From Candidatus Marsarchaeota archaeon (GTDB taxonomy: Archaea > Micrarchaeota > Micrarchaeia > Micrarchaeales > CABMGC01): a stretch of 60,535 nucleotides of DNA. The DNA lies in the NCBI GenBank assembly GCA_023476545.1, contig JAMCYP010000021.1, forward strand, positions 1-60,535, written 5' to 3'. Made by a program: the position numbers and the translations under genes. The notes under the pieces were generated by a model, which saw only the letters and a list, made by a program, of their open reading frames with translations, was not told the origin of the DNA and made no database searches. Shown here one piece after another: positions 35,969 through 50,262 of this stretch; positions within the stretch are counted from its first letter, which is position 1, and each line of letters starts with the position of its first letter.

Positions 35969-36022
35969 ACCCGGGTCTTTGCCTTGGAGGGGCAAAGTCC
36001 TACCAGGCTAGACTACACTCGC
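35950..36022 (-). tRNA. tRNA-Gly(TCC)
   Basis: Reverse complement GCGAGTG..TTGCC-CCTCCAA-GGCAA..GGTTCAAATCC..CGCTCGCA. Confidence 0.9.
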
Positions 36023-36127
36023 ACAGGAAGGAATTCGCCTCTCAGGTATTTAATATAGCTCACTTTGAAACCCCCATCACGCCGCGTCTCTTCTCGCCTT
36101 CAGAATCGTATTGCCCCTAACTAAAGC

Positions 36128-36146
36128 GCGAGCGCCGGGATTTGAA
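36128..36146. repeat. 19-bp copy of the tRNA-Gly 3' end (att-like direct repeat)
   Basis: GCGAGCGCCGGGATTTGAA identical to 36940-36958 and 35951-35969. Confidence 0.9.
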
Positions 36147-36180
36147 TTAATAATTCAAATACAGAACATATGCGTAACTT

Positions 36181-36618
36181 CTAGCGGCCTTTGTGAGCTA
36201 CCAGATCTTTATAGCTGAATACCTCAATTCCAAATTCATTTTTCAATGCCTTGCGCGCCTTTCTTATCCTTGAATCTTCTGTGACCAAGTTTTCCTTGAG
36301 TGCTATCGCAGTAGCAACGATGATGCGGTCTATATAATCCTTTATGCTGCTTGGCAGGAGACCGCAGGTCTCAATTATTTCTGGGCTGCAGAAAGGTGCG
36401 ACTCTGAAATTGGTGTTAATAGCTTCTATTGCCTCTATCGGAAATCTGGGCTGCAAGCCTTGTTTGTGTGCTTTCGCCTGTATCTCAAAAAGGGAAATCA
36501 TGCTAGTGCCGATTTCATCAAAAGCAAGGTCTATCTTGTGCTCGGCGATAAGTTTGAGCAAGTCCGTATCCACTTCTATCCTTGATAGCGGAAGCAGGTA
36601 TGTCGTGTCTACTATCAA
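36181..36618 (-). CDS. PIN-domain toxin (VapC-like)
   Basis: IVDTTYL, SLFE, DYIDRIIVATA, LVTED acidic PIN motifs. Confidence 0.9.
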   Translation of the reverse strand: MIVDTTYLLPLSRIEVDTDLLKLIAEHKIDLAFDEIGTSMISLFEIQAKAHKQGLQPRFPIEAIEAINTNFRVAPFCSPEIIETCGLLPSSIKDYIDRIIVATAIALKENLVTEDSRIRKARKALKNEFGIEVFSYKDLVAHKGR

Positions 36619-36620
36619 GC

Positions 36621-36854
36621 TTACACCGACTCTGACAGTCCTGCCCTGAATCTTTCAAATTCCTTTGCTGTCGTCTTGGCTAGTTTTTTTGAGTGGATTA
36701 GCGACAACAGTTTTCCCCTATTCGAAAGTGCCTTTTCAAGTATCTCATTCATGACCTTCGACACAGATTTGCTGTTCTTGTACCGCTCAAGGCTCTCCTT
36801 CACAAGCGCATCATACACGTTATTCTCTAGCAGCACCGTGGTTCTTTTAACCAT
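36621..36854 (-). CDS. putative antitoxin (ribbon-helix-helix-like)
   Basis: MVKRTTVLLENNVY...SKVMNEILEKAL; 2 bp upstream of the PIN gene. Confidence 0.8.
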   Translation of the reverse strand: MVKRTTVLLENNVYDALVKESLERYKNSKSVSKVMNEILEKALSNRGKLLSLIHSKKLAKTTAKEFERFRAGLSESV

Positions 36855-36938
36855 ATCATCACAATATGTTTGTATGCCTAAACATATAAATAGGTTTCCC
36901 CGTGGGAGAAGCGAACCCGATTTCCTTGTAAACACAAA

Positions 36939-37011
36939 TGCGAGCGCCGGGATTTGAACCCGAGTTGCAGACTTGGCAAGCCTGCGTCCTACCAGGCTAG
37001 ACTACGCTCGC
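36939..37011 (-). tRNA. tRNA-Gly(GCC)
   Basis: Reverse complement GCGAGCG..CAGGC-TTGCCAA-GTCTG..GGTTCAAATCC..CGCTCGCA. Confidence 0.95.
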
Positions 37012-37052
37012 GCGCATTAGCTATCTCCTTCAAGATTAAAATTATATGCCTG

Positions 37053-38216
37053 TCAGAACCTAGTCCTTCTCATGACCCCGAAAAGAAGCACCACGTACAG
37101 AAGCGCCATCGCGCCGAAGACGGCGGCCACGGCATAGAGCCTGAACTCGACTATTGTGGCGCCTGCTACAACCGCTCCCAGAGCTCCGCCGAAACCTCCG
37201 CTCACTACAGAGAGCGCCGCTATCTCGCCAGAATCCTTCCTGTCTATGTCAACTACGGCGCTGAACATCCAGACATCGGCCAGCGTCACCAGCAGCGCGC
37301 TCGCAGACAGTATTATAAGCGAGAAGAAGCTGTCCTTCAAGAGGAACGCGGCGGCAAACACGAACGCTGCCGACGCGACCATGGCTACCCCAACTAACGT
37401 CTTGGTATGTCCGCGCACATATAGCCTGCCTCCGAGGCTGTCACCGAAGGCGAACGGTATGCCAAGCACGCCGATAACGATGCCCCCGAGCAGTACCGTT
37501 GCGCTGCTCAGCCTGGTGATGAGCGGCACTGAGACCCAGACCGCATACGCGAAGAACGAGTACATGAAAGCGCTGAAGAGGAAGGGGACCACGTATCTTG
37601 GCATACGCGACACTAACCCATCCTTTATTGAGAGCAACTTGGAGAACTTGGGCGTATGGCGGCGCGAGACGTCGCTCGCGAACCTCATGCTCTTCATGAA
37701 GAGGAACGACGCTATCGCGATCAGCAAAAGCTCCGTGACTGCGAGCGGCACATTGCCGAAGCCTCCGTATATGAATCCCCCCAGGATCGGTCCCGCGACC
37801 CATCCGACGCCCATCACAGCAAAATCGTACCCAATGAACTTGACGTTCTTCTTCCCCATCACGTTTGACACGTGCGCCGTCGCGCCTATCCAGACGCCCA
37901 CGCCTCCCACTCCAAGCAGGAATACGCCCACTGAGTTCAGCAGTTCGATGTTTGTGGCAAATAGGAAGGGTACCACCAGCAGCGCTAGCATGCTGTCAAA
38001 GACTATCGCCTTTATCCTCCCGAAATCTGCAAAGAAACCGAAAGGCACAGCTCCAAGCACCTCTATGAGAGGAATCAGAGATATGAGCACCCCGACGGCG
38101 AAGTAGTCGCTCGCCAGGGTCTGCGAGAAGATGAGCGGCATCGTGTACCATATTGCGCCCTGCGCCACGTAGGCGAGGAGCACCGCGAGCATGAAGGTCA
38201 CGTTCCTTCCGTTCAT
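37053..38216 (-). CDS. MFS transporter
   Basis: About 12 hydrophobic helices, GFFADFGR motif A, GPILGG. Confidence 0.85.
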   Translation of the reverse strand: MNGRNVTFMLAVLLAYVAQGAIWYTMPLIFSQTLASDYFAVGVLISLIPLIEVLGAVPFGFFADFGRIKAIVFDSMLALLVVPFLFATNIELLNSVGVFLLGVGGVGVWIGATAHVSNVMGKKNVKFIGYDFAVMGVGWVAGPILGGFIYGGFGNVPLAVTELLLIAIASFLFMKSMRFASDVSRRHTPKFSKLLSIKDGLVSRMPRYVVPFLFSAFMYSFFAYAVWVSVPLITRLSSATVLLGGIVIGVLGIPFAFGDSLGGRLYVRGHTKTLVGVAMVASAAFVFAAAFLLKDSFFSLIILSASALLVTLADVWMFSAVVDIDRKDSGEIAALSVVSGGFGGALGAVVAGATIVEFRLYAVAAVFGAMALLYVVLLFGVMRRTRF

Positions 38217-38275
38217 CGCATCAGCACGAATCTTGACGCGGCAACCTTAATATCTTAACCATCAAACTATCTTCG

Positions 38276-39730
38276 GTGCAACGTTTGCAGGTATACAACA
38301 CGCTCTCTAGAGGCAAGGAGGAGTTCGCCCCGATGCACGACAGGGCGGTGAACATGTTTGTCTGTGGACAGACAGTGTACGATGATGCACATCTAGGGCA
38401 CGCGCGCACGTACATCGCGTTCGACATCGTTGTAAGGTGGCTCAAGCACCTAGGCTACAAGGTAAACTACGTCCAGAACATCACTGACATAGATGATAAG
38501 ATAATAGCAAGGGCCAGGGAGAAGGGAATCGAGCCGATAGAGCTTGCCAGGCAGTACGAGCAGAGGTTCATGGAGGACATGGACAGGGTAGGCGTCAAGC
38601 AAAATGTCAGCTCGTATCCCAGGTCACACGACTACATAACTGCAATAAAGGAGCAGATACAGCTGCTCCTTGACAAGGATTTCGCATACCTGCTCGAAGG
38701 CGACGTCTACTACGACGTTGCAAAGTTCAGGGACTATACTGCTCTGTCTGGAATGAAGATGGACGAGCTCGAGAAGCACAGGATAGAGCCGAAGGAGGGC
38801 AAGCGCAACGTTTACGATTTCGTCCTGTGGAAGGCTTCAAAGCCCGGCGAACCTTCCTGGGACGTGGAGGTCCATGTCGATGGCAAAGCGGTCCGTCTAT
38901 CCGGAAGGCCTGGCTGGCACATAGAAGACACGGCAATAACCCACTCGATATTCGGCCCGCAGTACGACCTGCACGGCGGAGCGAGCGAGCTCATGTTCCC
39001 ACACCACACGAACGAGATAGCGCAGGCAGAGGCTGCATTCGGCGTCAAGCCGTTCGTCAAGTACTGGATGCATTCTGGAGTGCTGAACATAAAGGGGCAG
39101 AAGATGAGCAAGAGCCTGAGGAACTTCATAACGATACGAGACTTACTGGCCAAGTACCCGGCCGAGGCCCTGCGGTTTTTCGTGGCCTCTACGCACTACA
39201 GGAAGGAGATAAACTACACTGAGGAGCTTATGCGCGACGCGAACAAGCTCATGTACTACGTCAACCAGTCTGTCGGCATACTGAACAACCTGCCTGCGGA
39301 CGAGAACGCGAGCGGAGAGGAGCTGGTGCAGGCGATAGGTCTCCTTGAGAAGGAGTTCACCGAAGCTATGGACGACGACTTCAACACATCCCTGGCTCTG
39401 ATGAGGCTGACGACCGCGATGAGAAGGGTGAGGCAGTTTTCAGATGAGAAAGGAGGCATAGACCAAAGGTCAAAGGAGACCGCACTAGGCAAGATTGTGG
39501 CTCTGGGTGACCTGCTCGGGATTATGAGTGAAAGTCTGTACAAGCAGGCTCTGTCGGCTGAGGTAGTTCAGATGATAAAGAAGAGGGAGGAGCTGAGGAG
39601 GACAAAGAACTTCGATGAGGCAGACAGGATGAGAGCGGAGATAGAATCTAAACACGGAATAAAGATCGAAGACACAGAATACGGTACTGTATGGTATCCC
39701 GGCGGTGCCCCTTCGCCAAAGGAGAGATAG
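38276..39730 (+). CDS. cysS: cysteine--tRNA ligase
   Basis: CGQTVYD.AHLGH, NITDIDDK, GRPGWHIE, FPHH.NE.AQ, KMSKS. Confidence 0.96.
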   Translation: MQRLQVYNTLSRGKEEFAPMHDRAVNMFVCGQTVYDDAHLGHARTYIAFDIVVRWLKHLGYKVNYVQNITDIDDKIIARAREKGIEPIELARQYEQRFMEDMDRVGVKQNVSSYPRSHDYITAIKEQIQLLLDKDFAYLLEGDVYYDVAKFRDYTALSGMKMDELEKHRIEPKEGKRNVYDFVLWKASKPGEPSWDVEVHVDGKAVRLSGRPGWHIEDTAITHSIFGPQYDLHGGASELMFPHHTNEIAQAEAAFGVKPFVKYWMHSGVLNIKGQKMSKSLRNFITIRDLLAKYPAEALRFFVASTHYRKEINYTEELMRDANKLMYYVNQSVGILNNLPADENASGEELVQAIGLLEKEFTEAMDDDFNTSLALMRLTTAMRRVRQFSDEKGGIDQRSKETALGKIVALGDLLGIMSESLYKQALSAEVVQMIKKREELRRTKNFDEADRMRAEIESKHGIKIEDTEYGTVWYPGGAPSPKER

Positions 39731-39748
39731 ACATACTTCGCTTCTTCT

Positions 39749-40057
39749 TTATGTTGCCTCTAGGTACGGGCCTCCGTCTTCTCTGATTTCGGCTTTCCCG
39801 TCCCGTTCAAGTTCGTACACGAGTCTGGAAGGTATCTGAATCGTATGGCCGGGTTCGGTCTCGATAATGCACAGCTCTGTCTCCACGGAGGTTTTTACCG
39901 TCTTAAACTTCCGAGGAGTTTTCCCCGCCAGCAGCGTCAGCAACTCTTTTTTGGCTCTCTCGTCAGCCTCGTTCATCAGCCGTTCGCCTACCGCGCGAAG
40001 CTCACTGCTTCCCATCTTGTCCAGGGACCTCGCGCCGATCCTTTCTTTGGTCTGCAT
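39749..40057 (-). CDS. hypothetical protein
   Basis: 102 aa ORF 4 bp downstream of the TrpD-like gene on the same strand. Confidence 0.55.
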   Translation of the reverse strand: MQTKERIGARSLDKMGSSELRAVGERLMNEADERAKKELLTLLAGKTPRKFKTVKTSVETELCIIETEPGHTIQIPSRLVYELERDGKAEIREDGGPYLEAT

Positions 40058-40061
40058 AGCA

Positions 40062-41348
40062 TCATTCCTGATTGATGAGTGGCAGGCGCTGCCTTACCTT
40101 CTCTATTATTCTCCAGTGCTCTCCGTTTTGCAACGATACTCGTGCAGCTTCTGTGCCGTCCCTAAAGTTAAAGTCTCCTTTGCTCATAGCTATCACTGCA
40201 CCCGTGTTCGCAAGTACTGTATTCACCGCCCCCTCGGTGGTTTCCCTTTTCAGAGTGTCCAGAGTGAACTTTAGCCTGTCTTTCTTGTTAAGGCTTGGAG
40301 GCGAGACCTCGGACGGTTCCGCAGGATGTGTGAGCCCGAAATCAGTATAATCCAGGTGAATGCGCTCTACCTCTTCGCCGTGCAGGAAGGCCGCGGTCGT
40401 GCCGCCTTCTAATATAGATACCTCATCCATGCATTCGGCTGGCCGCTCGGCGTTCACCAGCCCCTTGACTATAAGCGCGGTATCAACTTTTGTTATGCCC
40501 TTTTTGTTGAGTATGCGGTAAGCGTCAGCTATCACATGGGGTGGTGTGACGTTGTTTGTTCCCAATACCTTGATGTTTAACTTTTCTGTGTTGGTCGGAT
40601 TTGTCATCGGACCTATGATGTCGTTCATATGGGCCAGATGTGCAACAGAATGGGTCTGCGTGTGTACTATCTTGTAGCGGCTGTCAAGGGCTTCTATGTA
40701 GCAGAAACCTACCCCGTCTATCGTCTCCTCTACGGCACGAGGCTGGTAGTTGAGCCCCGAGTCTATGTTGAGATAGGTAATGAAATCAGAGCTGCCGGAT
40801 TTCATCGCATTTCCCGGAGAGCCGTGTTTCGCGACCTTCACCCCCGCGCCCGCAGCCACGAATGCTGACGCCGTACTAACGTGGAATGTGGGGAACGTGT
40901 CCCCGCCGGTTCCGCAGTTATCGGTCAGCCTCTCCGCATCGGGATTAAGGAAACCGTATTCAGAGTTCCCTATATCGTAGTCAAAAATTGCAGCGATTAT
41001 CCCGGCGAGTTGTTCCGAGGCACCTTCGACGTTGTGTGTCGCAGTGTTGTACATAGATGAGAGCAGAACTGTGCCCTGGATCTTGGCGATATTGAGGTCC
41101 TTTCCGAACGTCTCCTGCAACTTCTCGTTTGAATTCAATGAGGTGTAGTATGGGTATACCGCAAACACACCCAAACAGTAACCCTGCTCGAAGCTCAATG
41201 GCTTGTTCAGTCTTCCGTTGTATTTCAGAATGTAGTTTGCAAAGTCGCCTCCCTGCGAGGTCCTGCTGGCCCTCAGCAATTCCGGAATCTCGGTCGATTT
41301 GAACAGAGGCTCCTTTCTACTCACGGTCATTGTCATGTTTCTCCCCAC
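40062..41348 (-). CDS. anthranilate phosphoribosyltransferase-like protein (divergent TrpD family)
   Basis: DNCGTGGD, VSTASAFVAAGAGVKVAKHG, KSGSSD, GPMTNP, MDE. Confidence 0.85.
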   Translation of the reverse strand: MGRNMTMTVSRKEPLFKSTEIPELLRASRTSQGGDFANYILKYNGRLNKPLSFEQGYCLGVFAVYPYYTSLNSNEKLQETFGKDLNIAKIQGTVLLSSMYNTATHNVEGASEQLAGIIAAIFDYDIGNSEYGFLNPDAERLTDNCGTGGDTFPTFHVSTASAFVAAGAGVKVAKHGSPGNAMKSGSSDFITYLNIDSGLNYQPRAVEETIDGVGFCYIEALDSRYKIVHTQTHSVAHLAHMNDIIGPMTNPTNTEKLNIKVLGTNNVTPPHVIADAYRILNKKGITKVDTALIVKGLVNAERPAECMDEVSILEGGTTAAFLHGEEVERIHLDYTDFGLTHPAEPSEVSPPSLNKKDRLKFTLDTLKRETTEGAVNTVLANTGAVIAMSKGDFNFRDGTEAARVSLQNGEHWRIIEKVRQRLPLINQE

Positions 41349-41439
41349 GACTATTGGACCTGTGCCTTTTCCCCTATATAAGCATTTTCTCCATTTTCGT
41401 CAGATGTGTTTTTAAAGGGGTCTGCAATTTTGTCTGGTT

Positions 41440-42303
41440 CTATCTGATCTTCCTGACTGCGTCCATAAGCCTCGCCACGCGTCTGGAGTCTATACGTGCT
41501 GAATGCGGCTTAACCTGCCTTTCTCCACTTACGCGTTCTCCCTTTTTCAGAGACGTGCCAACTATCGCGCCATCGGCGTATTTCATAAGTGTTCCAGCAT
41601 TCCTGAAGTCCAAGCCGCTGCCTATTATAACCGGCACATCCACGCTAGCCTTCGCCTCGGCCAGCGCCTCGGACTTGGGCGAATCGGCGGTCCATCTCCC
41701 AGTCACTATTATCGCATCCGCACCCTCGCGCTCCGCCTTCCTTGCTGATTCGGCGATTGTGATCTGCTTGTCCAACATCTCGGCGTGCTTGACGTGTATA
41801 TCAGCAAATATCATTACGTCTTCGGCGCCCAGCTTCCTCCTGTACTCTATGACCTTCTGCGGCTGCGCACGTATGATGCCGAAATCCGTTCTCACGCTGT
41901 CCACAAATACCGGAACTCTGATGAACCTGGCTCCTGTGGTTTTGGCTATGGACAGCGCCGCCATGTAGTCGTTCCACAGCACGCTTACTCCAAACGCCGT
42001 GTGCGCGTTCCTTTTAAGCTCCACACCGAGGTATGTCATCGCCGCTACCGTCTCTGGCCCGACAAATATCTTGTGCGGCACATCATAGTTGTTCTCAATT
42101 ATCACGCCGTTTATCCCTCCCCTCTTAAATGCACGCAGGTCTTTCTCCGCATATTTCAGTATGTTGCTTAATCCGCCGAAATCGTTGTAACCAAACAGCG
42201 GCGCGAAGTGCAGCGCGCCTATTATCGGTTTTCGTACACCAAATATCTCCTTGAGCATCGTCAGCCCTCTCTTGTAACTCATAATCTTTCTTCCGTTTTC
42301 CAC
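41440..42303 (-). CDS. BtpA/SgcQ family TIM-barrel protein
   Basis: IGALH, IIENNYDVP, GVSVLWND, ADIHVKHA, ADAIIVTG, IGSG, DGAIVGTSLK; true start may be 42258 or 42282. Confidence 0.92.
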   Translation of the reverse strand: MENGRKIMSYKRGLTMLKEIFGVRKPIIGALHFAPLFGYNDFGGLSNILKYAEKDLRAFKRGGINGVIIENNYDVPHKIFVGPETVAAMTYLGVELKRNAHTAFGVSVLWNDYMAALSIAKTTGARFIRVPVFVDSVRTDFGIIRAQPQKVIEYRRKLGAEDVMIFADIHVKHAEMLDKQITIAESARKAEREGADAIIVTGRWTADSPKSEALAEAKASVDVPVIIGSGLDFRNAGTLMKYADGAIVGTSLKKGERVSGERQVKPHSARIDSRRVARLMDAVRKIR

Positions 42304-42436
42304 TTTTAAAAAGCTTTACCATCATCAGCTTCTGCATGCTTCGAATGCCTTTACCAGGCATTTTACATTCCAAACAAATAACAGAGTTATACTTATAAAT
42401 GGGGAAATTTCTTATCTAATAGCTTTATCAACTAAT

Positions 42437-43648
42437 GTGAATAAGATGTCTACTAGACAGAAGGATACGGCTGAGATCGCCGGAGGGGCTTCGCTCAAAG
42501 AACTGTCGCGGGGCCGAGAGGTCTCAATCAGGGGTAATGCTGTGGCACTAGACGAGGCAAACGCCAAGCTCATAAACACATTCGGCGCGGCTAGCGTGAA
42601 GGATCTGAAAGAGGTTCCCGACTTCTACACATTCAGCAATGAGCTAATCGTTTCCCACAGGGACTTCGACAGATACTATACCAGGCTGCTTTCCGGAGAA
42701 AGGAGCGCAATAGTGTCGGGACTGAATCCAAGCGCAACAATACACATAGGTCACATCCCTGTATTCGATACGAACCTCTACTTCCAGCAGAAACACGGTG
42801 TTGAGGTCTTCATACCCTTCTCAGATGACGAGAGCTACGTCTCGCTCAAGATTAAGACGCAGGAGGAGGGGTTGAAGTACGCGCTACAGCTGACGAGAAG
42901 CATGCTCGCCTACGGATTCGACACAAGGAGGACGCATGTGATAATTGACCAGATATACACCAACATATACAACCTTGCGATAAAGCTCTCGCGCAGCATC
43001 ACAATGTCTGAGGTCAAGTCCGTATACAGCTATACCAACGACCAGAATACAGGATTGCACTTCTATCCGGCGATACAGTCCGCACACGTGCTGCTTCCAA
43101 ACCAGTTCGGGATGAGCAACGTGCTCGTTCCTATAGGACCTGACGAGGATGCGCACCTGAGAATATGCAGAGACATAGCTGACAGGTTCAAGTACGAGAA
43201 GCCGGCGGTTCTTCACTCCAAGTTCCTGCCCGGCGTCGATGGGGAAAAGATGTCAAAATCGAGAGGCAATGCGGTCTTCTTCCTTGACCCGGCAAAGGAG
43301 GTAAAGAGGAAGATAATGTCCGCATTTAGCGGAGGCAGGGGCACAGTAGAGGAGCATAGACGTCTGGGCGGCAATCCGGACGTTGATGTAGCCTACATGT
43401 ACCTCAAGAGCTATTTCTTGAAGGCGGAGGAGGCAAAGCAGCTCTACGCTGATTACAAGCAGGGTAAGCTGTTGAGCGGAGAGATGAAAAAGATGCTTCT
43501 GGAGCACGTACAGGCGCGCATAGACGACTTCCAACACAAGTACGAGAAGGTCACGGAGAGCGACATCGAGAAGGTTGTAATGAGGAACGAGGATGTCGAT
43601 CTCAAGTCGCTGATAGACAGGTCTGGCGCGTTCTCTACGAAGAAGTGA
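42437..43648 (+). CDS. tryptophan--tRNA ligase paralogue 1 (archaeal/eukaryotic type, non-canonical pocket)
   Basis: HIGH, SDDE, YPAIQ, KMSKS, AFSGGRGTVEEHRRLGGNPDVD, LLSGEMK. Confidence 0.88.
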   Translation: MNKMSTRQKDTAEIAGGASLKELSRGREVSIRGNAVALDEANAKLINTFGAASVKDLKEVPDFYTFSNELIVSHRDFDRYYTRLLSGERSAIVSGLNPSATIHIGHIPVFDTNLYFQQKHGVEVFIPFSDDESYVSLKIKTQEEGLKYALQLTRSMLAYGFDTRRTHVIIDQIYTNIYNLAIKLSRSITMSEVKSVYSYTNDQNTGLHFYPAIQSAHVLLPNQFGMSNVLVPIGPDEDAHLRICRDIADRFKYEKPAVLHSKFLPGVDGEKMSKSRGNAVFFLDPAKEVKRKIMSAFSGGRGTVEEHRRLGGNPDVDVAYMYLKSYFLKAEEAKQLYADYKQGKLLSGEMKKMLLEHVQARIDDFQHKYEKVTESDIEKVVMRNEDVDLKSLIDRSGAFSTKK

Positions 43649-43663
43649 GCGCTCGGTGGGCGC

Positions 43664-44752
43664 ATGAGAGCGGAGAAAGAGATGCCTGCAAACGCGGGCG
43701 AATTGGTAAAACCCAGCGACGACAACATAAAGCTTGTAGAATTGTTTGGCGCCACCAAGGTAACTAATAAGGGCCAGTTTCCAGATTTCCAGGCCTTCAG
43801 GGCGGGCCTCGTCTACTCACACAGGGGGGCCGACGAATTCTATTCAAGGATCTTAAAGAATGAAGAAAGCGCCATAGTGTCCGGATTCAACTCCAAGGTC
43901 GTCCTGCATCTGGGTCACGCTGCGATACTCGGTATGGATTTGGAGTTCCAGAGAAAATACGGGACAGAGGTCTTCATACCGATCTCTGATGATGAGAGCT
44001 ATCTGCTTTCGAAGGCGAAGAGCCCTGAGGAAAGCGTGGGCTCGGCCTTTAGGCTGATCAGGTCGCTTCTTGCCTTTGGTTTCGACCCAAGCAAGACCAG
44101 GTTCATAGTCAACCAGCTGCGTAGCGACGTGTACAATCTCGCCATGAAGCTCTCGAGAGGGCTTACGGCCTCTGAAATAAAGGCGATTTACGGATTCGGA
44201 GACGAGCAGAATATTGGCATGTTCTTCTACCCAGCGGTACAGGCCGCGCAGCTTGTTGCACCGCAGCTTTCCGGGATAAGAAACACGCTGGTTCCGATAG
44301 GCCCGAACGAAGACGTGTACCTGCGCGCCTGCAGGGATGTAACCTCGCGCTTCGGGTATGAGAAGCCTGCTGTCCTTCACTTCAAGTTTCTGCCGGGGAT
44401 AGATGGTAGGACAATGTCCTCGTCAAAAGGCAACGCCATAACGTTTTTGGATGACGAGGACACTCTCCGCAAGAAACTTGCTGCGCATCCAGATGATGGG
44501 AGCGTGTCGTTTCTCTATCTCAAGAGCTACTTTTCGCACGATGCGGCTGCGATGCAGGCGTGCTCTGACTTCTTAGAGGGCAAAACAAAGGGCGAAGAGT
44601 TAAGGGAGGTGCTGCTCGGTCAACTGTTGCAGCTCACAAAAGAGTTTCAGGATCGTTATATGAAAACAGATGAGACAGACGTAGAAAAAGTGCTGCTCAC
44701 CAACGAGGGCACAGACCTGAGAGCGATGCTTCGAAAGCTCAACATAGTATGA
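43664..44752 (+). CDS. tryptophan--tRNA ligase paralogue 2 (degenerate)
   Basis: Colinear with the preceding ORF (HLGH, SDDESY, FYPAVQ, LVPIGP, FLPGIDG), but has TMSSS and a deletion in the anticodon-domain loop. Confidence 0.85.
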   Translation: MRAEKEMPANAGELVKPSDDNIKLVELFGATKVTNKGQFPDFQAFRAGLVYSHRGADEFYSRILKNEESAIVSGFNSKVVLHLGHAAILGMDLEFQRKYGTEVFIPISDDESYLLSKAKSPEESVGSAFRLIRSLLAFGFDPSKTRFIVNQLRSDVYNLAMKLSRGLTASEIKAIYGFGDEQNIGMFFYPAVQAAQLVAPQLSGIRNTLVPIGPNEDVYLRACRDVTSRFGYEKPAVLHFKFLPGIDGRTMSSSKGNAITFLDDEDTLRKKLAAHPDDGSVSFLYLKSYFSHDAAAMQACSDFLEGKTKGEELREVLLGQLLQLTKEFQDRYMKTDETDVEKVLLTNEGTDLRAMLRKLNIV

Positions 44753-44797
44753 TGCGTGCCGGTGTGAAGAAAAACATTTAAGACTAGTTATCGCTGT

Positions 44798-45583
44798 ATG
44801 TCTGACTGCATGAAGAACTATATCGTGATAGTCAGCGACTGCAGCGACGTCGCATACAATGAAATGCGTGCGGCAATCGCAAACGAACTGGATGCGCTGG
44901 GGAGCGCTGACGATGTTGTTGTTGAACCGGTGGTGAGCGCCGCCCCATTCTCAATAATAAATGGTGCGTTTCTTGTCAGGCTGATGGCCGAGATATACCC
45001 TCCGGCCCGCACGACAATGCTCGTGGTGCTGAATCCGAGCAAGGTCAGGCCCGAACGCATTGCAGGGGAAACCAAGAACGGCTTCAAGTTCGTGGGCGCA
45101 AACACCGGCACACTCAACTGGCTGATAAATGACTTTGGCCTCAAAAAGCTTTACGAACTGCGCGATCCCGGGTTCGTGTCGTTCGGCGGCAAATACGTTC
45201 ATTCACCAGCGGCCGCAAAGGTTGCCACAGGTATCGAGTTCGAGAAGGTGGGCAACCCAATCGATCCGAACGTGATCAGTAAGTTCAAGATAGAGGACGG
45301 TACCGCGGTACACATAGATAATTTTGGACTCGTGAAGATAAAGGGGAAACCACCCTCATTTAATGAGGGACAGAAGCTAAGCATCTACGTGAACAATACA
45401 ATGCGCTTCGAGGCCGTGTACGCAAACAGGATGATGAACCTGGATGACGGTGTGACCGCGCTCTACAGGGGAAGCTCGCTTGGCGGTATGCCAGAAATAG
45501 GAATGGTGAGGAAGACGGATGGCGCAAAACTCCTTGGCATAAAGATCGGTGACATGGTCAGGTGGGAGACGAGCTCCAGGTAG
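44798..45583 (+). CDS. SAM hydroxide adenosyltransferase / SAM-dependent halogenase (DUF62) family
   Basis: PFSIINGAF, FVGANTG, SFGGK..SPAAA, HIDNFG, GSSLGGMPEI. Confidence 0.8.
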   Translation: MSDCMKNYIVIVSDCSDVAYNEMRAAIANELDALGSADDVVVEPVVSAAPFSIINGAFLVRLMAEIYPPARTTMLVVLNPSKVRPERIAGETKNGFKFVGANTGTLNWLINDFGLKKLYELRDPGFVSFGGKYVHSPAAAKVATGIEFEKVGNPIDPNVISKFKIEDGTAVHIDNFGLVKIKGKPPSFNEGQKLSIYVNNTMRFEAVYANRMMNLDDGVTALYRGSSLGGMPEIGMVRKTDGAKLLGIKIGDMVRWETSSR

Positions 45584-45660
45584 GCCTTTCCATTGCCGTT
45601 CAATCGCTTTTTAAACCTTGCCAACCACAGTAAGCATGTGGTACAGATGAGGCGCTTATC

Positions 45661-46578
45661 TTGGAAAGAGACTATCTCTACGTACTGCTGGCGATATTGA
45701 TATGGTCCACGCAAGCGTTTGTCACAAAACTGCTTGTGACATCGCTTAGCCCAGTTATTGTATATTTCTTCTCGTCTCTGCTCGCCGGGGCGACCCTTCT
45801 TATCCTCTATTTCCTGCTCAACAAAGGCGCTTCCGCCAGACGCATCTTCAAAAAGCCAGGAAAGATACTGATAATATCCGTGCTTCTCGGCGCGTCGAAC
45901 CTCCTACTCTTCACTTCCTTTTCCATGCTCCAGGCGTCGAGCGTGGTGATCACGCTCTACGTGTACCCGATACTGATGGCCATCTTCAACTCCCTACTGT
46001 TCACCAAGAAGTTTGAGACCAGAGAGCTCGTTGGCGTGCTTTTCGGATTTCTCGGCATTTTCATATTCGCTACCGGAGGCTCTTTGACCACGCTGCACAT
46101 AGAAAGCTCCTACGGCTACCTCATGGTGCTCGGAGGCGCAGTGGCGTGGGCGCTCTATCTCATAGTGCAGAAGCACTTCGGTCTCGAAGTGGTGAGCTCA
46201 AACGGGCTCGCATTCCTCATATCCGCGCTCTTCGCCCTCCCGCTCCTCACCCTCATAAACCTCAGTGGAATCTACAGCATATCCAACCCGCAGATACTCG
46301 TGATGCTGCTATATTTCAGCGTGATGACCTTCGGAATAGCAAACATACTCTACCTCAATGGGCTGAGGAAGGTCAGGGTGATAAACGGGGCTCTGGGTAG
46401 CTACCTAACTCCTGTCATAGCGGTTATTCTGAACTATCTTGTGCTAGGCGAACTGATCTTCTGGTACGATATAGTGCCTATCTTGTTTGTCTTCATTGGC
46501 TTCTTGGTTATCAATTGGAACGCGGTGAGCGCTGCGCTTCCGAAGCTTCGAGGCCATGGTCCCAGTTTTGGTCAATAG
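45661..46578 (+). CDS. EamA/DMT family transporter
   Basis: About 10 TM helices, IWS, YVYP, GAVAWALY, YLTPVIAV..LGE. Confidence 0.9.
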   Translation: MERDYLYVLLAILIWSTQAFVTKLLVTSLSPVIVYFFSSLLAGATLLILYFLLNKGASARRIFKKPGKILIISVLLGASNLLLFTSFSMLQASSVVITLYVYPILMAIFNSLLFTKKFETRELVGVLFGFLGIFIFATGGSLTTLHIESSYGYLMVLGGAVAWALYLIVQKHFGLEVVSSNGLAFLISALFALPLLTLINLSGIYSISNPQILVMLLYFSVMTFGIANILYLNGLRKVRVINGALGSYLTPVIAVILNYLVLGELIFWYDIVPILFVFIGFLVINWNAVSAALPKLRGHGPSFGQ

Positions 46579-47801
46579 CTCTCCAACAAACCCGTGAGCG
46601 TGCTCTTCACTTTCTCAAGGTCTTTGATGGCGACGAACTCGTTGGTCTTGTGTGCGCTCTCGTTAAAAGTACCATACGATACGGCCGGTATGCCTACTTT
46701 AACAAACGCAGAGGCGTCGTTGCCTCCGTGCCCACCGTAAAGCTGCTTGTCGCCCGTAAGCTGTACCATGCGCTTAACTATGTCCTCGTTTTCCGGGGTG
46801 ACGTACGGTTCTTTTTTCATGATGCTTTTCCGCTCAATCCAGATCTTTAGCCCTCCTTTTACCTCCGCGAGCCCCAGGTCTTTGAGATATCTGAGTTTCT
46901 CAGTCTCGAAGAACCTCTCGAACCGCTCAAACAAGCTGCCCACGCTGCCCTCTGGTATGCATCTTGCGTTGAACGATGCTGCCATCTCATAGGGTATGGT
47001 GTTTGTCACAGCCGGGTTTCCTGCATGTATCGTCGTGATGGAGAACCTACCGGTAAGCTTCCTATCGTACTCGTCTGGTCCCGCGTCAACATATCTGGAA
47101 ACATCGCGCTTTGCAATGTCGCTGAATTTGACGATTCTTTCTAAGAACGGCATACCCAACTGTATAGGATTTACTGCTCGGTGCGGCCAGCCTGCATGGT
47201 ATCCCTTTCCTGTTATCTTGATGGTCGCCCCAAAGCCCCCGCTTGCGCCTACGAACACAAACGGGTCAGCGTCAACAACTACCGCAGACCGGCTTCTTGA
47301 CTTGAAGTGGTCTACAACATAGTCCATGCCGTCAGCAGACCCCACCTCCTCATCGCAGGTCAAGAAGAGTTCTATGTTTGTGCTTGGGCTTGAATCTCTG
47401 ATTGCAGAGAGAATGGCTACAATTGCCCCTTTGTCATCATTGGTTCCGCGACCATACAGCCTGCCATTTTTTTCTACAACTTTGAGAGGGTCTGTGCGCC
47501 ATCCTTCAGAGCTTGTGTCAACGGTGTCGTAGTGCGCGTTTAAAGCCAGGGTGTGCTCGGCTCCGTTATCGAAATATGCCACAATATTTCTCTTTGCCTT
47601 CTTTTCAGCCTCTTTCGGAGTGATGATGTTGATGCGAGTGGCGCCCAGCGACCGGCATTCCTTCTGCAAGAGCTCTGTTATGGCGGTGTAGCCCTCTCCG
47701 CCTTTGCCGTCTTTTATGGCACCGGTTTCCGTAGCTGTGTCTATGGCCACCAATTCCTTCAGAAAGGAGATGTCAGATTCTTTTATCTTTGGCTGGATCA
47801 C
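46572..47801 (-). CDS. M20 family metallo-amidohydrolase (ArgE/DapE-like)
   Basis: NAHYDTV, LYGRGTNDDKG, DEEVG, GYHA, GGNDA, AHKTNE. Confidence 0.92.
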   Translation of the reverse strand: MIQPKIKESDISFLKELVAIDTATETGAIKDGKGGEGYTAITELLQKECRSLGATRINIITPKEAEKKAKRNIVAYFDNGAEHTLALNAHYDTVDTSSEGWRTDPLKVVEKNGRLYGRGTNDDKGAIVAILSAIRDSSPSTNIELFLTCDEEVGSADGMDYVVDHFKSRSRSAVVVDADPFVFVGASGGFGATIKITGKGYHAGWPHRAVNPIQLGMPFLERIVKFSDIAKRDVSRYVDAGPDEYDRKLTGRFSITTIHAGNPAVTNTIPYEMAASFNARCIPEGSVGSLFERFERFFETEKLRYLKDLGLAEVKGGLKIWIERKSIMKKEPYVTPENEDIVKRMVQLTGDKQLYGGHGGNDASAFVKVGIPAVSYGTFNESAHKTNEFVAIKDLEKVKSTLTGLLESY

Positions 47802-47914
47802 GCATTACACCTTTGTCTCCCATTTGATTATCTGCGCAAGCATTTACTGTTGAAAGAAGGGTTTGTACTTAATAAGAATTGCCTTTATACGTGATATGAA
47901 AGCAATTTGTACAA

Positions 47915-47988
47915 TGCCGCAGGCCGGATTTGAACCAGCAACGTTCCGCTCTTCAGGCGGATGTTCTCCCGGGTTGAACTACTGCGGC
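47915..47988 (-). tRNA. tRNA-Phe(GAA)
   Basis: Reverse complement GCCGCAG..TCCGC-CTGAAGA-GCGGA..GGTTCAAATCC..CTGCGGCA. Confidence 0.95.
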
Positions 47989-48005
47989 ACAGAAAAACAT
48001 CACGC

Positions 48006-48659
48006 TCAATTTATATATAATCTCTTGTAAGCTTTAAACTTTGCAAGATGCTTCTTATTCGAAAATCCAATTTCGTTCATCCATTTTATCAGCATCGGTT
48101 TCCCATAAATTGCAACTCTGTATCCGTTTTTAGTGGTCGCATCGCCTCTTGTATGCGCTCTGAATCCTTTTGAATTCAATAGCTCTTCTAGCTGCATCGC
48201 TAGTTTTTCGCTCATTGTAGTCAATTCGAGTGTGGGATAAGACCTTGTGCTATAGGTCTTTTTACTGAAGAATACGGTTCCATCAGTATCCCAAAGGCCT
48301 CTCACTGTCCATTTTGAATATTTCCAGCCCTTTTCCATAATCGTCTTAGGGATCATTATCTTCCTAGCTTTTCCTGAACCGTGTGGAATTCCAAGTTCAG
48401 TTAAGTTGTTAAATGCGCTTTCTGACTGCAATCTAAGTGTTATCCAATTATGTCCATTGAAATGTCTTACCCTTATTGGATAAGGTTCCTTGTCAAACAA
48501 ATGGTGCATTTTCCTGCGTAGATATAGAAAGTAGTCCTTATCATTACTCGAATCTCCAGTCATCTCAATTCTGTATCTGGAACCATCTGTCCAGAGGTTT
48601 CCATCGCCCATCACCGCTCCGGCAATTTCACACAGGTCTTGTGTTATTTTCGCAGCCAA
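48006..48659 (-). CDS. free-standing LAGLIDADG homing endonuclease-like protein
   Basis: Two motifs, EIAGAVMGDG and VRGLWDTDG, plus IGFSN.KH; strongly AT-rich. Confidence 0.88.
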   Translation of the reverse strand: MAAKITQDLCEIAGAVMGDGNLWTDGSRYRIEMTGDSSNDKDYFLYLRRKMHHLFDKEPYPIRVRHFNGHNWITLRLQSESAFNNLTELGIPHGSGKARKIMIPKTIMEKGWKYSKWTVRGLWDTDGTVFFSKKTYSTRSYPTLELTTMSEKLAMQLEELLNSKGFRAHTRGDATTKNGYRVAIYGKPMLIKWMNEIGFSNKKHLAKFKAYKRLYIN

Positions 48660-48699
48660 ATAATCACAATAGTCTTAATTCTTAAGCAAGTAGAGATTT

Positions 48700-50262
48700 A
48701 TGATACTAATGTCTGTCGATGAAAGATGGCTCAAACTTGGGTCTCTGGCAGAGCTTCTCAACCTCGATGGGGTGGAGTTCCGCCAGTACCAGTTCAACAT
48801 AATCAGCTCCGTTCTCAAGCACGGCAGCACGCTGGTCGTGCTGCCTACGGGCCTAGGCAAGACGCTTATCGGCCTGTCGGTTATCGCAAGCGAGATAGAG
48901 CAGGGCAGACGTGCGCTCCTTCTCGCGCCAACGCGTCCGCTATCCGAGCAGCACTACGCCACCGTGATGAGTGCCATGAAGCTGCCCGAGGAGAGCGTGG
49001 CGCTTCTTCTGGGCTCGGTGGGAAAGAAGCGGAGGAAGGAGCTCGAGCAGAGCGCCAAGCTGATAATAGCGACGCCGCAGACCATAGCCAACGACCTCAA
49101 GTCAGGCAACTTCTCCCTCGCTGATTTTGGAGTGGCGGTCTTCGATGAGTGCCATCGCGCCGTAGGAAAGTACGCATACACTTACATAGCAAACGAGCTT
49201 GCGGTCAGGAATGCGCTTGTGCTGGGGCTTACCGCCTCGCCGGGAAGCAAGAAGGAGAAGATAAACGCGCTCGTTGGCACGCTAAACATAAAGCACATTG
49301 AGGCGCGCATCTCCACCGACCCGGACGTCGTCTCGTACGTGATGCCTAAGTACATGCACGTGGTCAGCGTGCCGCAGAGTTCTACGATAAAGAGCATAGC
49401 CGCGACGCTCAAGCCCGTCGGAGAGGAGAGCCTCGCGAGCCTGAACAAGATGGGGCTCATGAACGCGAAGAACTTCGACCGCATACCGAGGGGTGTGCTG
49501 ATCGCGCTCGGCAACTCGCTCAAGAAGATAAGCGCGCCAGGGTTCAGGTTCGGCGCCTTCTTCAGCTACGTCAAGCTGCTCAACATCTCCCACGCGTACG
49601 ACCTGCTCATGACTGAGGGCATCTACCCCTTCAGCGCGTACATGGACTCGCTCACCGCCCGGGAGGAGAAGAGCCGCGCCGTTGAGAACCTCCTGGCCAA
49701 CAAGAACGTGACGCACGCCATGGCGCTGGCGAAGGAGGCAATAAAGCGCGGGGAGGAGCACGAGAAGGTCAAGGCCGCGATCTCAGTGCTGAAGCAGTAC
49801 AGCGGAAAGAGCGCAATAGTCTTCGTGCAGTATAGGTCTACGATAAAGATGCTCGTCGACGCGTTCCAGGCGAGCGGCATAGACGCGATGCCGTTCGTCG
49901 GCAAGAAGGAGGGAGTGACGCAGGAGAAGCAGAAGAAGGTGATCGAAGAGTTCAGGAACGGGAAGTTCAGCGTGCTGGTCGCCAGCTCCATAGGCGAGGA
50001 GGGCCTCGACATACCCAGCGTAGACCTGGTGCTCTTCTACGAGCCCATACCTAACGAGATACGCAACATACAGCGCAAGGGTCGCACCGCAAGATTCCGG
50101 GCAGGCGACGTCTACATACTTGCGGCGCAGGGCACCAAGGACGAGATATACCTGCACGTGTCCGCTGCGAGGGAGAAGAAGATGCTCTACCTGATAAACG
50201 AGATAAACAGAGAACTCGCGCGCCAGGCCGCTCATGAAGGGCAGACGAGGCTACGGGCATAA
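48700..50262 (+). CDS. Hef/FANCM(Mph1)-like DEAH helicase without nuclease domain
   Basis: PTGLGKT, DECHRAVG.YAY, LTASPG, SIGEEGLDIP, QRKGRT. Confidence 0.92.
   Translation: MILMSVDERWLKLGSLAELLNLDGVEFRQYQFNIISSVLKHGSTLVVLPTGLGKTLIGLSVIASEIEQGRRALLLAPTRPLSEQHYATVMSAMKLPEESVALLLGSVGKKRRKELEQSAKLIIATPQTIANDLKSGNFSLADFGVAVFDECHRAVGKYAYTYIANELAVRNALVLGLTASPGSKKEKINALVGTLNIKHIEARISTDPDVVSYVMPKYMHVVSVPQSSTIKSIAATLKPVGEESLASLNKMGLMNAKNFDRIPRGVLIALGNSLKKISAPGFRFGAFFSYVKLLNISHAYDLLMTEGIYPFSAYMDSLTAREEKSRAVENLLANKNVTHAMALAKEAIKRGEEHEKVKAAISVLKQYSGKSAIVFVQYRSTIKMLVDAFQASGIDAMPFVGKKEGVTQEKQKKVIEEFRNGKFSVLVASSIGEEGLDIPSVDLVLFYEPIPNEIRNIQRKGRTARFRAGDVYILAAQGTKDEIYLHVSAAREKKMLYLINEINRELARQAAHEGQTRLRA

Follow-up and report, generated by a model that had tools for sequence, protein, structure and literature searches.

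A candidate accessory island in a micrarchaeal genome, with two separately conserved enzyme modules flanking a tryptophanyl-tRNA synthetase gene

What do two tandem genes for tryptophanyl-tRNA synthetase (TrpRS) do in a tiny acid-mine archaeon, in a short region that also encodes a protein resembling anthranilate phosphoribosyltransferase (TrpD-like), a BtpA barrel, a DUF62-like protein, an EamA transporter and an M20 metallo-amidohydrolase? The region occupies positions 39749–47801 of a contig of 60,535 nucleotides (JAMCYP010000021.1 of assembly GCA_023476545.1, Candidatus Marsarchaeota archaeon), the whole of which is called the window here; it is contig C4 of a genome (G000) of 761 kb in 25 contigs that is 87.5% complete, and the database names of its nearest proteins point to Micrarchaeota. 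An earlier note on this DNA had proposed that the genes form one dedicated module for an unusual amino acid or aminoacyl-nucleoside. We arrived at a different reading, in which our confidence is evenly balanced against our doubt: the region is a real accessory island in which two separately conserved enzyme modules, with the functions proposed below, flank a TrpRS gene. We found that two pairings, one of a degenerate synthetase with the DUF62-like protein and one of the TrpD-like protein with BtpA, are conserved far beyond G000, and that each lies near tryptophanyl- (or tyrosyl-) tRNA synthetase genes at about tenfold the background density. In alignments, the island enzymes retain their cofactor-side motifs and have changed residues on the substrate side.

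The DUF62-like gene (44798–45583, plus strand) encodes a protein that matches PF01887 in the N-domain only (37 bits, cut-off 26.3), and it directly follows the second TrpRS gene (TrpRS-2, 43664–44752, plus strand). Among 61 genomes (G000 and 60 relatives; counts over the relatives include the unpublished genome G050), a DUF62-like gene was present in two, G000 and its nearest relative, G009, and it adjoined TrpRS-2 in both. Searching 1.84 billion representatives for the subfamily yielded 225 matches at E ≤1e-3 and 48 at E ≤1e-30. We examined 80 DUF62-like loci in species-representative genomes of candidate phyla radiation (CPR) lineages, DPANN archaea, Streptomyces, Bacilli/Lachnospiraceae, Chlamydiae, Holosporales, and others. 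An open reading frame (ORF) resembling tryptophanyl- or tyrosyl-tRNA synthetase (W/Y-RS-like) was found in 34 of these loci with a hidden Markov model of the synthetase cluster (33 by BLAST clustering); its distance from the DUF62-like gene was at most 300 bp in 16 loci and at most 1.5 kb in 32. The density was 46 W/Y-RS-like ORFs in 948 kb, as against 3 in the 761 kb of G000 and none in the 155 kb of 16 control loci (L211–L226), which carry a canonical-like TrpD and were excluded from neighbor clustering.

The adjacent synthetases are of TrpRS-like and TyrRS-like type and of bacterial and archaeal kinds, and most of them are degenerate. Of the full-length copies that directly adjoin a DUF62-like gene, 13 of 14 have degenerate motifs (HIGH, GxDQ, or KMSKS), whereas copies farther away have canonical motifs in 22 of 26 cases and deviate in 4. 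Where a canonical copy lies 0.6–0.9 kb from the DUF62-like gene, a small protein, c5 or c9, is encoded between them. In four of five genomes checked (a Wolfebacteria metagenome-assembled genome [MAG], a Micrarchaeota MAG, a Streptomyces genome, and a complete Bacilli genome, the last with the cluster in three copies), the adjacent copy is extra to the housekeeping genes. The pattern is thus a triad that crosses domains: a canonical Trp- or Tyr-tRNA synthetase, a synthetase-like protein with damaged ATP motifs, and a protein of the SAM_HAT fold without the water-activating His and Asp. TrpRS-1, TrpRS-2, and the DUF62-like protein are therefore one instance of this pattern.

The small proteins bear on one alternative, in which the degenerate paralogue retains the parts that bind tRNA and brings tRNA-Trp or Trp-tRNA to enzymes of modification or aminoacyl transfer, much as in cyclodipeptide synthases and other enzymes that use aminoacyl-tRNA. 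The canonical synthetase of the same amino-acid type that usually adjoins the degenerate one would then supply the charged tRNA. c5 and c9, whose homology hhalign supports with a probability of 97.7%, resemble a bare TyrRS catalytic domain, as cyclodipeptide synthases also do. That likeness is weak, however (best E-value 0.017, for c9 with the TyrRS catalytic domain of M. jannaschii); c5 and c9 match no cyclodipeptide synthase family and no other Pfam family; TrpRS-2 differs from cyclodipeptide synthases in being a full-length synthetase homologue; and family scans found no tRNA-modification family among the island proteins. We consider a tRNA-directed module very unlikely.

The sequence of the DUF62-like protein suggests how the triad might work. 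Its subfamily profile matched PH0463, MJ1651, SalL, and others at E-values of 2e-39 to 1e-25, and it aligned end to end with PH0463, MJ1651, and 2zbu (2e-39 to 7e-37), and likewise with an (R)-S-adenosylmethionine (SAM) hydrolase and the chlorinase SalL, as expected of a SAM_HAT fold over both domains. Over its full length the protein thus belongs to the same fold family as PH0463, SaDUF62, SalL, and the fluorinase FlA (profile E-values 2e-39 to 1e-13). In the DUF62-like subfamily, the triad His of the hydrolases (in FHGRD) is an invariant Gly130 (FGGK) and the triad Asp (in DPGVG) is a nearly invariant Asn79; the Arg (R87) remains, and the N-terminal Asp motif is kept as D14/D17. According to a 2023 review, the His-Arg-Asp triad defines SAM hydrolases, being strictly conserved there and absent from halogenases, and the known acceptors for adenosyl transfer from SAM are water and halides only (PMC10491745). 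The replacement of His by Gly and of Asp by Asn sets the DUF62-like protein apart from the SAM hydroxide adenosyltransferases (it scored 26 bits against the (R)-SAM hydrolase equivalogs, with a cut-off of 350), and its context, a synthetase paralogue and not a halometabolite pathway, sets it apart from the SAM halogenases. A single-sequence AlphaFold2 (AF2) model had a mean predicted local distance difference test score (pLDDT) of 32.7 and was unusable. None of 16 long DUF62-like forms bears a synthetase-like or c5/c9-like part; their extra parts are HAD, nucleoside triphosphate-transferase-like, or of no assigned family.

Other genes recur beside DUF62-like genes: a PPDK_N/PEP-utiliser protein (25 loci), an unassigned protein of 260 aa (c3; 21 loci), and a HisRS-like protein (c4; 13 loci), as well as an S51 peptidase, a B12 radical-SAM enzyme, enolase, an asparagine-synthase-like protein, a sulfotransferase-like protein, Ldh_2, HIT, and phosphoenolpyruvate (PEP) mutase. 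In one Streptomyces locus, the order is PPDK_N protein, DUF62-like protein, synthetase-like protein, aminotransferase, and MFS transporter.

Some of these loci are of interest in themselves. A cassette of PPDK_N, c3, DUF62-like, c5/c9, and Trp/Tyr-tRNA synthetase genes is present in L070, L072, L075, L077, L082, L083, L095, L113, L124, and others, and its proteins are very similar across contigs whose labels are various CPR lineages, “Gammaproteobacteria” MAGs, and in one case Pacearchaeota; this reflects either horizontal transfer or mis-binning. In L081, L099, L106, and L110 (Chlamydiae, Odyssella, and Saccharibacteria), the DUF62-like gene accompanies PEP mutase, Ldh_2, HIT, and an adenylate-kinase-like gene, and in this type of cluster it is sometimes duplicated or fused to an N-terminal part of 250 aa; this type of cluster hints at phosphonate chemistry. 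Finally, P0321 combines a canonical DUF62 protein and a radical-SAM/wyosine-formation (Tyw1-like) domain in one fusion, which links the classical DUF62 family to tRNA modification.

TrpRS-2 is a degenerate synthetase of the kind found beside DUF62-like genes elsewhere. It is 44% identical to TrpRS-1 and does not reach the cut-off of the curated trpS model (TIGR00233; 145.9 bits, cut-off 176.75). It keeps HLGH, but KMSKS is changed to TMSSS, with loss of both lysines, GPDED is changed to GPNED, and 17 residues are deleted (AFSGG...GGNP). In a search that covered 5.8 billion clusters, just two of 294 homologues were more than 49% identical to it: the G009 orthologue P0122 (74%) and the fragment P0125 (60%), which reads IMSRK and GPNED. 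These three proteins form a long-branch clade within a divergent group of TrpRS proteins (class A, described below), with an SH-like approximate likelihood-ratio test (SH-aLRT) support of 99, and this clade is not sister to TrpRS-1. The trees were quick trees in which long-branch effects are possible, one built from 37 hand-picked members of the 120 listed class A proteins and 6 class B ORFs, and a second that omitted the TyrRS rows and ORFs shorter than 240 aa. A recent tandem duplication of TrpRS-1 is not supported, as TrpRS-2 groups with P0125 on the long branch. Because synonymous divergence (dS) between G000 and G009 is saturated, we give only the proportions of nonsynonymous and synonymous differences (pN and pS), which are 0.161 and 0.776 for TrpRS-2 and 0.133 and 0.783 for the DUF62-like gene. 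With pN/pS of about 0.2, both genes are under purifying selection.

The first of the tandem genes, TrpRS-1 (42437–43648, plus strand), which the earlier note had called non-canonical, is not an exotic additional copy. The protein matches PF00579, has intact HIGH and KMSKS motifs, and passes TIGR00233 with 242 bits; the database copy is 400 aa long, and translation may in fact begin with the ATG at 42446. Matches of the Trp/Tyr synthetase type in G000 number three: TrpRS-1, TrpRS-2, and a gene on contig C7 that is of TyrRS type, its motifs reading as those of the archaeal TyrRS group. TrpRS-1 is the sole canonical TrpRS of this genome. A TrpRS-2 query found matches in 60 of the 61 genomes, and these fell into two groups, class A (39%–75% identity to TrpRS-2) and class B (about 28%–36%); class A matches in 14 fetched loci were 49%–85% identical to TrpRS-1. 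In 11 relatives (G009, G012, G017, G026, G031, G034, G040, G043, G044, G051, and G060), class A occurs with no match at the class B level, and the sole TrpRS of these relatives is orthologous to TrpRS-1 at 57%–85% identity. Two of these relatives, G044 and G051, have genomes in a single contig, so in such relatives class A must be what charges tRNA-Trp. TrpRS-1 itself has pN and pS of 0.095 and 0.649 relative to G009. We conclude from the genomic context that TrpRS-1 is the working TrpRS of the organism and presumably charges its tRNA-Trp.

Class A is a divergent clade that is common in DPANN archaea and Thermoplasmatota. At least 120 homologues are present in databases, all at least 56% identical to TrpRS-1 among the matches listed, and those with names, again among the matches listed, are called tryptophan--tRNA ligase and come from Micrarchaeota, Thermoplasmatota, Marsarchaeota, Nanoarchaeia, and others; Pacearchaeota and Helarchaeota names appeared in the TrpRS-2 homologue search. 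Within the phylum, class A is present in 48 of 401 genomes (this count and the two others given below for the phylum include the unpublished genome G225), and two or more copies are present in six: G000, G009, G306, G361, G056, and G132. The pocket substitutions that had been reported for TrpRS-1 are real, but they are not peculiar to it. In alignment with yeast TrpRS, the Tyr of YTGRGPS is replaced by Val; the residue that precedes the TDDE block is Pro, where yeast has Glu and where human TrpRS and class B have Gln; and the Gln of AIDQD is replaced by Glu. In the canonical archaeal and eukaryal pocket, the positions concerned (Tyr in YTGRGPS, Gln in IQxTDDEK, and Gln in AIDQD) are presumably the tryptophan contacts described for human TrpRS. 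All class A sequences inspected share Val, Pro, and Glu at these positions, and class B relatives retain Tyr, Gln, and Gln. For annotation, class A is thus a normal housekeeping enzyme in many DPANN genomes despite a pocket that looks non-canonical.

Several class A genes lie in other unusual settings. A 20 kb stretch of G056 (C6, 71.9–91.9 kb; L032 and L033) holds four TrpRS-like genes: a class B gene, two of class A, and a fourth that is very divergent and reads HLGT and KMGK; a comparable copy is in tandem with class A in G171. The accompanying genes in G056 encode an MDR dehydrogenase, a HAD protein, and Nudix-like and kinase-like proteins, and no TrpD-like gene is present. In G039 (C22, 1542–2651; L017 and L037), the class A frame is broken by four stop codons. 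Class A matches in G044, G158, G205, G031, G306, G247, and G334 were flagged with one in-frame stop, mostly TGA and in matches that extend to the ORF ends; these flags are probably due to alignments that overran the stop codon.

The status of the two synthetases is central to a second alternative, that the locus reflects target duplication for resistance. The extra Trp/Tyr synthetases would then be inhibitor-insensitive spares, the DUF62-like protein, the PPDK_N-type phosphotransferase, the hydrolases, the M20 protein, and the transporters would inactivate or expel a foreign nucleoside or tryptophan analogue, and class A would be the resistant type, displacing class B in some lineages. Synthetase paralogues in metabolite clusters are a kind already known: copies of aminoacyl-tRNA synthetases confer self-resistance in antibiotic clusters, examples being TrpRS (indolmycin), LeuRS (agrocin 84), and SerRS (albomycin). 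The island resembles these clusters in having extra class-I synthetase genes beside small-molecule enzymes and a transporter, and the copies are extra to housekeeping genes in G132, G056, G288, and the Bacilli and Streptomyces genomes checked. The patchy distribution of class A, which coexists with class B in those three micrarchaeal genomes and is the sole TrpRS elsewhere, is as resistance would predict, and so are the class A pseudogene of G039, where the class B gene is intact, the transporters that follow the pair in Micrarchaeota (EamA) and Streptomyces (MFS), and the lower GC content of the island. Near-identical cassettes in unrelated CPR lineages and on one contig labeled Pacearchaeota suggest mobility. 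A self-resistance gene should be an active additional copy, and that is what class A may be in G132, G056, and G288, where it is additional to class B; G000 is different, for its active copy, TrpRS-1, is the sole canonical TrpRS, and its additional copy is degenerate. The damaged catalytic motifs of the copies beside DUF62-like genes, including the loss of both KMSKS lysines in TrpRS-2, are the opposite of what a functional spare target requires. The hosts also differ, being mostly genome-reduced CPR and DPANN organisms, and no known antibiotic pathway genes are present. No known resistance or defense family was matched: PADLOC returned no relevant family for 10 proteins, the one match being of HTH type in the PPDK_N protein of a CPR locus. 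We regard resistance by target duplication as unlikely.

Two other assignments were also considered and rejected. Tryptophan biosynthesis was rejected as a reading of the island: the PALP/TrpB, IGPS (TrpC), TrpA, and chorismate-binding (TrpE) families had no match in the whole 761 kb genome (TrpF and TrpG were not searched), which extends the absence of trp genes that the earlier note had seen in the window, and the anthranilate-site residues of the TrpD-like protein are changed. Expansion of the genetic code was rejected because G000 has a single, intron-bearing tRNA-Trp(CCA) and no suppressor, selenocysteine, or pyrrolysine tRNA was found in it; with this set of tRNAs, nothing points to the pyl-like loader of a non-standard amino acid that had been raised as an option.

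The second module consists of the TrpD-like gene (40062–41348, minus strand) and the BtpA gene (41440–42303, minus strand). The TrpD-like protein matches PF00591 alone and scores 143.9 bits against TIGR01245, below the cut-off of 199. It belongs to a subfamily of about 80 clusters at 35%–53% identity, beyond which identity falls to canonical TrpD at 34% or less; the clusters carry PF00591 only, and those with names are called “hypothetical protein” or “anthranilate phosphoribosyltransferase” and come from Micrarchaeales, Nanoarchaeia, and CPR. The subfamily profile matched solved anthranilate phosphoribosyltransferase (AnPRT) at an E-value of 2e-42. Like TrpD, these proteins share the alpha/beta catalytic domain and the motifs for phosphoribosyl pyrophosphate (PRPP) and Mg, GTGGD and DE, which are invariant in the subfamily and align with those of AnPRT. 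Unlike TrpD, they have a longer, unrelated N-terminus in place of PF02885, which was not detected; at the acceptor site, KHGN is changed to KHGS and the Arg of solved AnPRT to an invariant His229; and the gene is partnered by BtpA in a genome in which none of the other trp families searched for was found. The protein is predicted to be a PRPP-dependent phosphoribosyltransferase of a distinct DPANN/CPR subfamily. The substrate-site substitutions that had been listed for the TrpD-like and DUF62-like proteins are real and hold across both subfamilies.

The BtpA protein is a clear member of the BtpA/SgcQ family (PF03437, 221.6 bits; TIGR00259, 223.3 bits, cut-off 153.4). It differs from the BtpA equivalog of photosystem-I biogenesis, against which it scored 197 bits (cut-off 400), and the host is not a phototroph. 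An AF2 model (pLDDT 94.1) is a (beta/alpha)8 barrel whose nearest folds are ThiE, KDPGal aldolase, GGGPS, HisF, PriA, and TrpA, with template modeling (TM) scores of 0.5–0.6; all are generic phosphate-binding barrels, and none stood out as a specific relative; the sequence search gave only a weak likeness to the phosphate site of TrpA and GGGPS.

The two genes are nearly always found together. TrpD-like genes are rare, occurring in 7 of 401 phylum genomes (G000 included) and in 2 of the 61 genomes, where the second match was weak; BtpA occurs in 5 of the 61. All seven Micrarchaeota genomes with a TrpD-like gene have a class A TrpRS, as against 48 of 401 overall. We fetched five Micrarchaeota TrpD-like loci (G225 not among them): BtpA, 54%–61% identical, adjoins the TrpD-like gene in all five, class A copies lie a few kb away in four, and EamA homologues are adjacent in two (L135, 45% identity; L138, 36%). 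A metagenome scan gave 544 relatives, of which 80 loci were kept; 64 of these belong to the TrpD-like subfamily and, with four genome loci, make 68. Of the 41 loci that leave 1 kb or more of room, 37 have BtpA following the TrpD-like gene, at a distance of no more than 300 bp in 29 of them. W/Y-RS-like ORFs, all of TrpRS type but one TyrRS, were found in 18 of all 68 loci; among the 24 loci that are 9 kb or longer, 15 have them. Other partners are a PfkB-like kinase (12), a HAD phosphatase (10), a chorismate-mutase-like/methyltransferase fusion (9), and an AstE-family deacylase (7), and, more rarely, a pyridoxal phosphate-dependent decarboxylase (6), M20 (5), and a class-I GATase (5). The richest example is in the complete genome G132, where a stretch of about 12 kb carries four class A-type synthetase genes and two TrpD-like genes together with genes for EamA, BtpA, an aminotransferase, an MDR dehydrogenase, and a RibD_C reductase; one of the synthetase genes reads HIAQ for HIGH, one has the loop deletion of TrpRS-2, and one is a remnant of 250 aa, and a class B TrpRS and a TyrRS are encoded elsewhere in the genome. 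As a pattern, the TrpD-like protein and BtpA form an obligate two-enzyme unit. Because this unit lies recurrently near TrpRS genes, it probably acts on a tryptophan-related aromatic compound, and as the obligate neighbor of a PRPP transferase, the BtpA family gains an enzymatic context.

A PRPP transferase encoded next to a motif-less synthetase paralogue recalls HisZ, a HisRS paralogue that regulates the ATP phosphoribosyltransferase HisG, and by this analogy TrpRS-2 and the other degenerate copies could be tryptophan-sensing subunits of a neighboring enzyme (the TrpD-like or the DUF62-like protein). TrpRS-2 has lost catalytic motifs and kept its full length under purifying selection, as such a subunit might; in L136, only 12 bp separate the end of a class A variant from the TrpD-like gene that follows it, and in 13 loci the HisRS-like c4 stands beside the DUF62-like gene. 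However, TrpRS-2 is transcribed away from the TrpD-like gene, the pairing is not kept in G009, which has TrpRS-2 and no TrpD-like gene, and the TrpRS copies beside TrpD-like genes in other genomes retain HIGH and KMSKS. The island differs further from HisZ-HisG in that the paralogue is of class I (Trp) and not class II (His). A regulatory pseudo-synthetase is, in our judgment, quite improbable.

The reading that we prefer, of two modules that flank a TrpRS gene, can be put as a mechanism. The DUF62-like protein would handle a 5′-adenosyl compound, most likely by bimolecular nucleophilic substitution (SN2) in which something other than water attacks C5′ of SAM. The degenerate paralogue would bind an aromatic amino acid and an adenosine-type ligand and would not activate tryptophan with ATP; jointly, the two proteins might make or dismantle a tryptophan-linked adenosine compound, and EamA might move that compound or its precursor across the membrane. 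The TrpD-like protein would be a PRPP-dependent ribosyl transferase with an aromatic acceptor other than anthranilate, and BtpA a phosphate-binding TIM barrel that works on its phosphoribosyl product. M20 may be a deacylase.

A more specific version goes further, and we think it distinctly unlikely as a whole. The triad-less DUF62 protein would be a new SAM-dependent 5′-adenosyl transferase, using a carboxylate, amine, or phosph(on)ate nucleophile that is presented by the degenerate Trp/Tyr-tRNA synthetase paralogue, and it would make nucleosides resembling aminoacyl-adenylates without ATP activation. In CPR, DPANN, Bacilli, and Streptomyces, these nucleosides would serve to attack a host's or competitor's TrpRS or TyrRS, with the canonical synthetase (class A TrpRS in Micrarchaeota) as the insensitive target and EamA or MFS as the exporter. 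Separately, the TrpD-like protein and BtpA would process an N- or C-ribosylated aromatic, the first enzymatic role for BtpA. A third nucleophile for adenosyl transfer from SAM would, if true, widen SAM chemistry. To our knowledge, CPR and DPANN organisms are nearly devoid of specialized metabolism, and a recurrent synthetase-paralogue cluster would bear on how they interact with hosts. If the associations are functional, they offer testable contexts for the triad-less DUF62 subfamily, for a TrpD-like transferase with an altered acceptor site, and for BtpA. In the literature, we found no description of the triad with a triad-less DUF62 protein, of the TrpD-like/BtpA pair, or of their shared tie to TrpRS in CPR and DPANN, although supplementary tables of CPR/DPANN genome papers could list the families.

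That the island consists of two modules and not one emerged from comparison with G009, which belongs to the same genus (locus L024). There the order MFS, cysS, TrpRS-1 (85% identity), TrpRS-2 (74%), DUF62-like (77%), EamA (80%), LAGLIDADG ORF, and helicase is kept, and no TrpD-like, BtpA, or M20 gene is present at the locus. Upstream of TrpRS-1 are genes for a histidine-phosphatase-like protein and a PPDK_N protein of 731 aa, and EamA is followed by Fic and PIN genes (the phosphatase, Fic, and PIN labels come from reading the sequences, not from family scans). G009 thus keeps the right-hand unit only, and a single module of all the genes, as first proposed, does not hold. What stands of the proposal of a dedicated module is that the TrpD-like/BtpA pair occurs near class A TrpRS genes, with EamA in some loci, and on CPR and DPANN contigs, and that DUF62-like genes lie beside class-Ic synthetase paralogues. 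The refuting condition set in the earlier note, that the genes be co-located in no other genome, did not hold, as the neighborhood search found co-location elsewhere.

The same comparison could be taken to mean that the genes have no functional link, and that this is a variable, horizontally fed region by tRNA-Phe in which TrpRS-2 is a decaying duplicate and the recurrent neighborhoods are shared mobile cassettes. The flanks do differ (PPDK_N, phosphatase, Fic, and PIN in G009 versus TrpD-like, BtpA, and M20 in G000), even cysS has been replaced, many CPR loci are near-identical, GC content dips in the region, and a LAGLIDADG ORF lies beside the tRNA. Decay is nonetheless difficult to reconcile with a pN far below pS in TrpRS-2 and the DUF62-like gene, and chance with associations that recur with different synthetase types, in different phyla, and in both domains, at about ten times the background density, with motif degeneracy that tracks adjacency (13 of 14 versus 4 of 26). 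We therefore give the absence of any link very little credence.

A number of observations weigh against the two-module reading itself. A DUF62-like gene and the TrpD-like/BtpA pair occur together in G000 only and never in the other 148 loci examined, so that their meeting in G000 may be accidental. The DUF62-like loci include 46 of 80 with no synthetase gene in the retrieved DNA, and their neighbor sets differ strongly by lineage (PEP mutase/enolase/Ldh_2; AsnB/sulfotransferase; HisRS-like/S51 peptidase), so the subfamily may serve several unrelated pathways. As many CPR loci are near-identical cassettes, the locus counts are not independent events. The PPDK_N protein, c3, and c5/c9, which make up most of the remaining companions that recur beside DUF62-like genes, were not found in G000 by tblastn, so the full pathway may not be encoded in this genome. 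The links to EamA and M20 rest on few loci and low identities. Prediction of a complex between TrpRS-2 and the DUF62-like protein gave a score of 0.00, which is no verdict either way. ORF calls were crude, being the longest non-overlapping frames, and the functions given for the subfamilies are proposals from sequence and gene context.

The physical locus is well supported. Family scans and the ORF list placed all nine features, from the small ORF next to cysS to tRNA-Phe, where the earlier note had put them. The left unit, on the minus strand, consists of BtpA, the TrpD-like gene, and an ORF of 102 aa (39749–40057, minus strand); the right unit, on the plus strand, consists of TrpRS-1, TrpRS-2, the DUF62-like gene, and EamA; and an AT-rich spacer of 133 bp (42304–42436) separates them. 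A contig of 4842 bases from the sequencing run of a separate study matches 40463–45304 with 5 differences and runs from the TrpD-like gene through BtpA, the spacer, and the two TrpRS genes into the start of the DUF62-like gene, and a second independent contig from that run spans 45304–47810. The one RNA run compared with the region yielded nothing, which carries no information on expression. Because the joint between the two units is bridged by an independent contig, it is real and not an assembly artifact. GC content is 0.47–0.52 over 41–49 kb, versus 0.53–0.59 over most of the window. Rfam at E ≤0.1 over 36000–50000, which includes the spacer and its surroundings, returned two tRNAs alone and no leader or riboswitch. 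The 102 aa ORF had no Pfam, NCBIfam, or PADLOC match and, by tblastn, no match in any fetched locus set, and whether it is a genuine gene is uncertain.

EamA (45661–46578, plus strand) is an EamA/DMT transporter with two PF00892 matches (115 bits); it showed a weak, sub-threshold likeness to exporters of amino acids and aromatic amino acids and reached no equivalog cut-off. The M20 gene (46572–47801, minus strand) is convergent with EamA, and its product matches PF01546 and PF07687 and falls below every NCBIfam equivalog cut-off; the M20 cluster that recurs in 5 of the 68 TrpD-like loci is 23%–24% identical to it. A second M20-family gene in G000 (C13, 5493–6440) is 28% identical to the M20 of the window. 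The left-hand neighbor of the small ORF is cysS (38276–39730), and the right-hand boundary is tRNA-Phe(GAA) (47914–47989, minus strand), beyond which lies a LAGLIDADG-type ORF (48006–48659). cysS occupies the same syntenic place as its G009 counterpart (L024, 3694–5181) and is only 34% identical to it, with 60% identity for the flanking MFS gene and 85% for TrpRS-1, which looks like an in situ replacement of a synthetase gene. The G009 counterpart of the LAGLIDADG ORF (L024, 13841–14490) is split into two frames.

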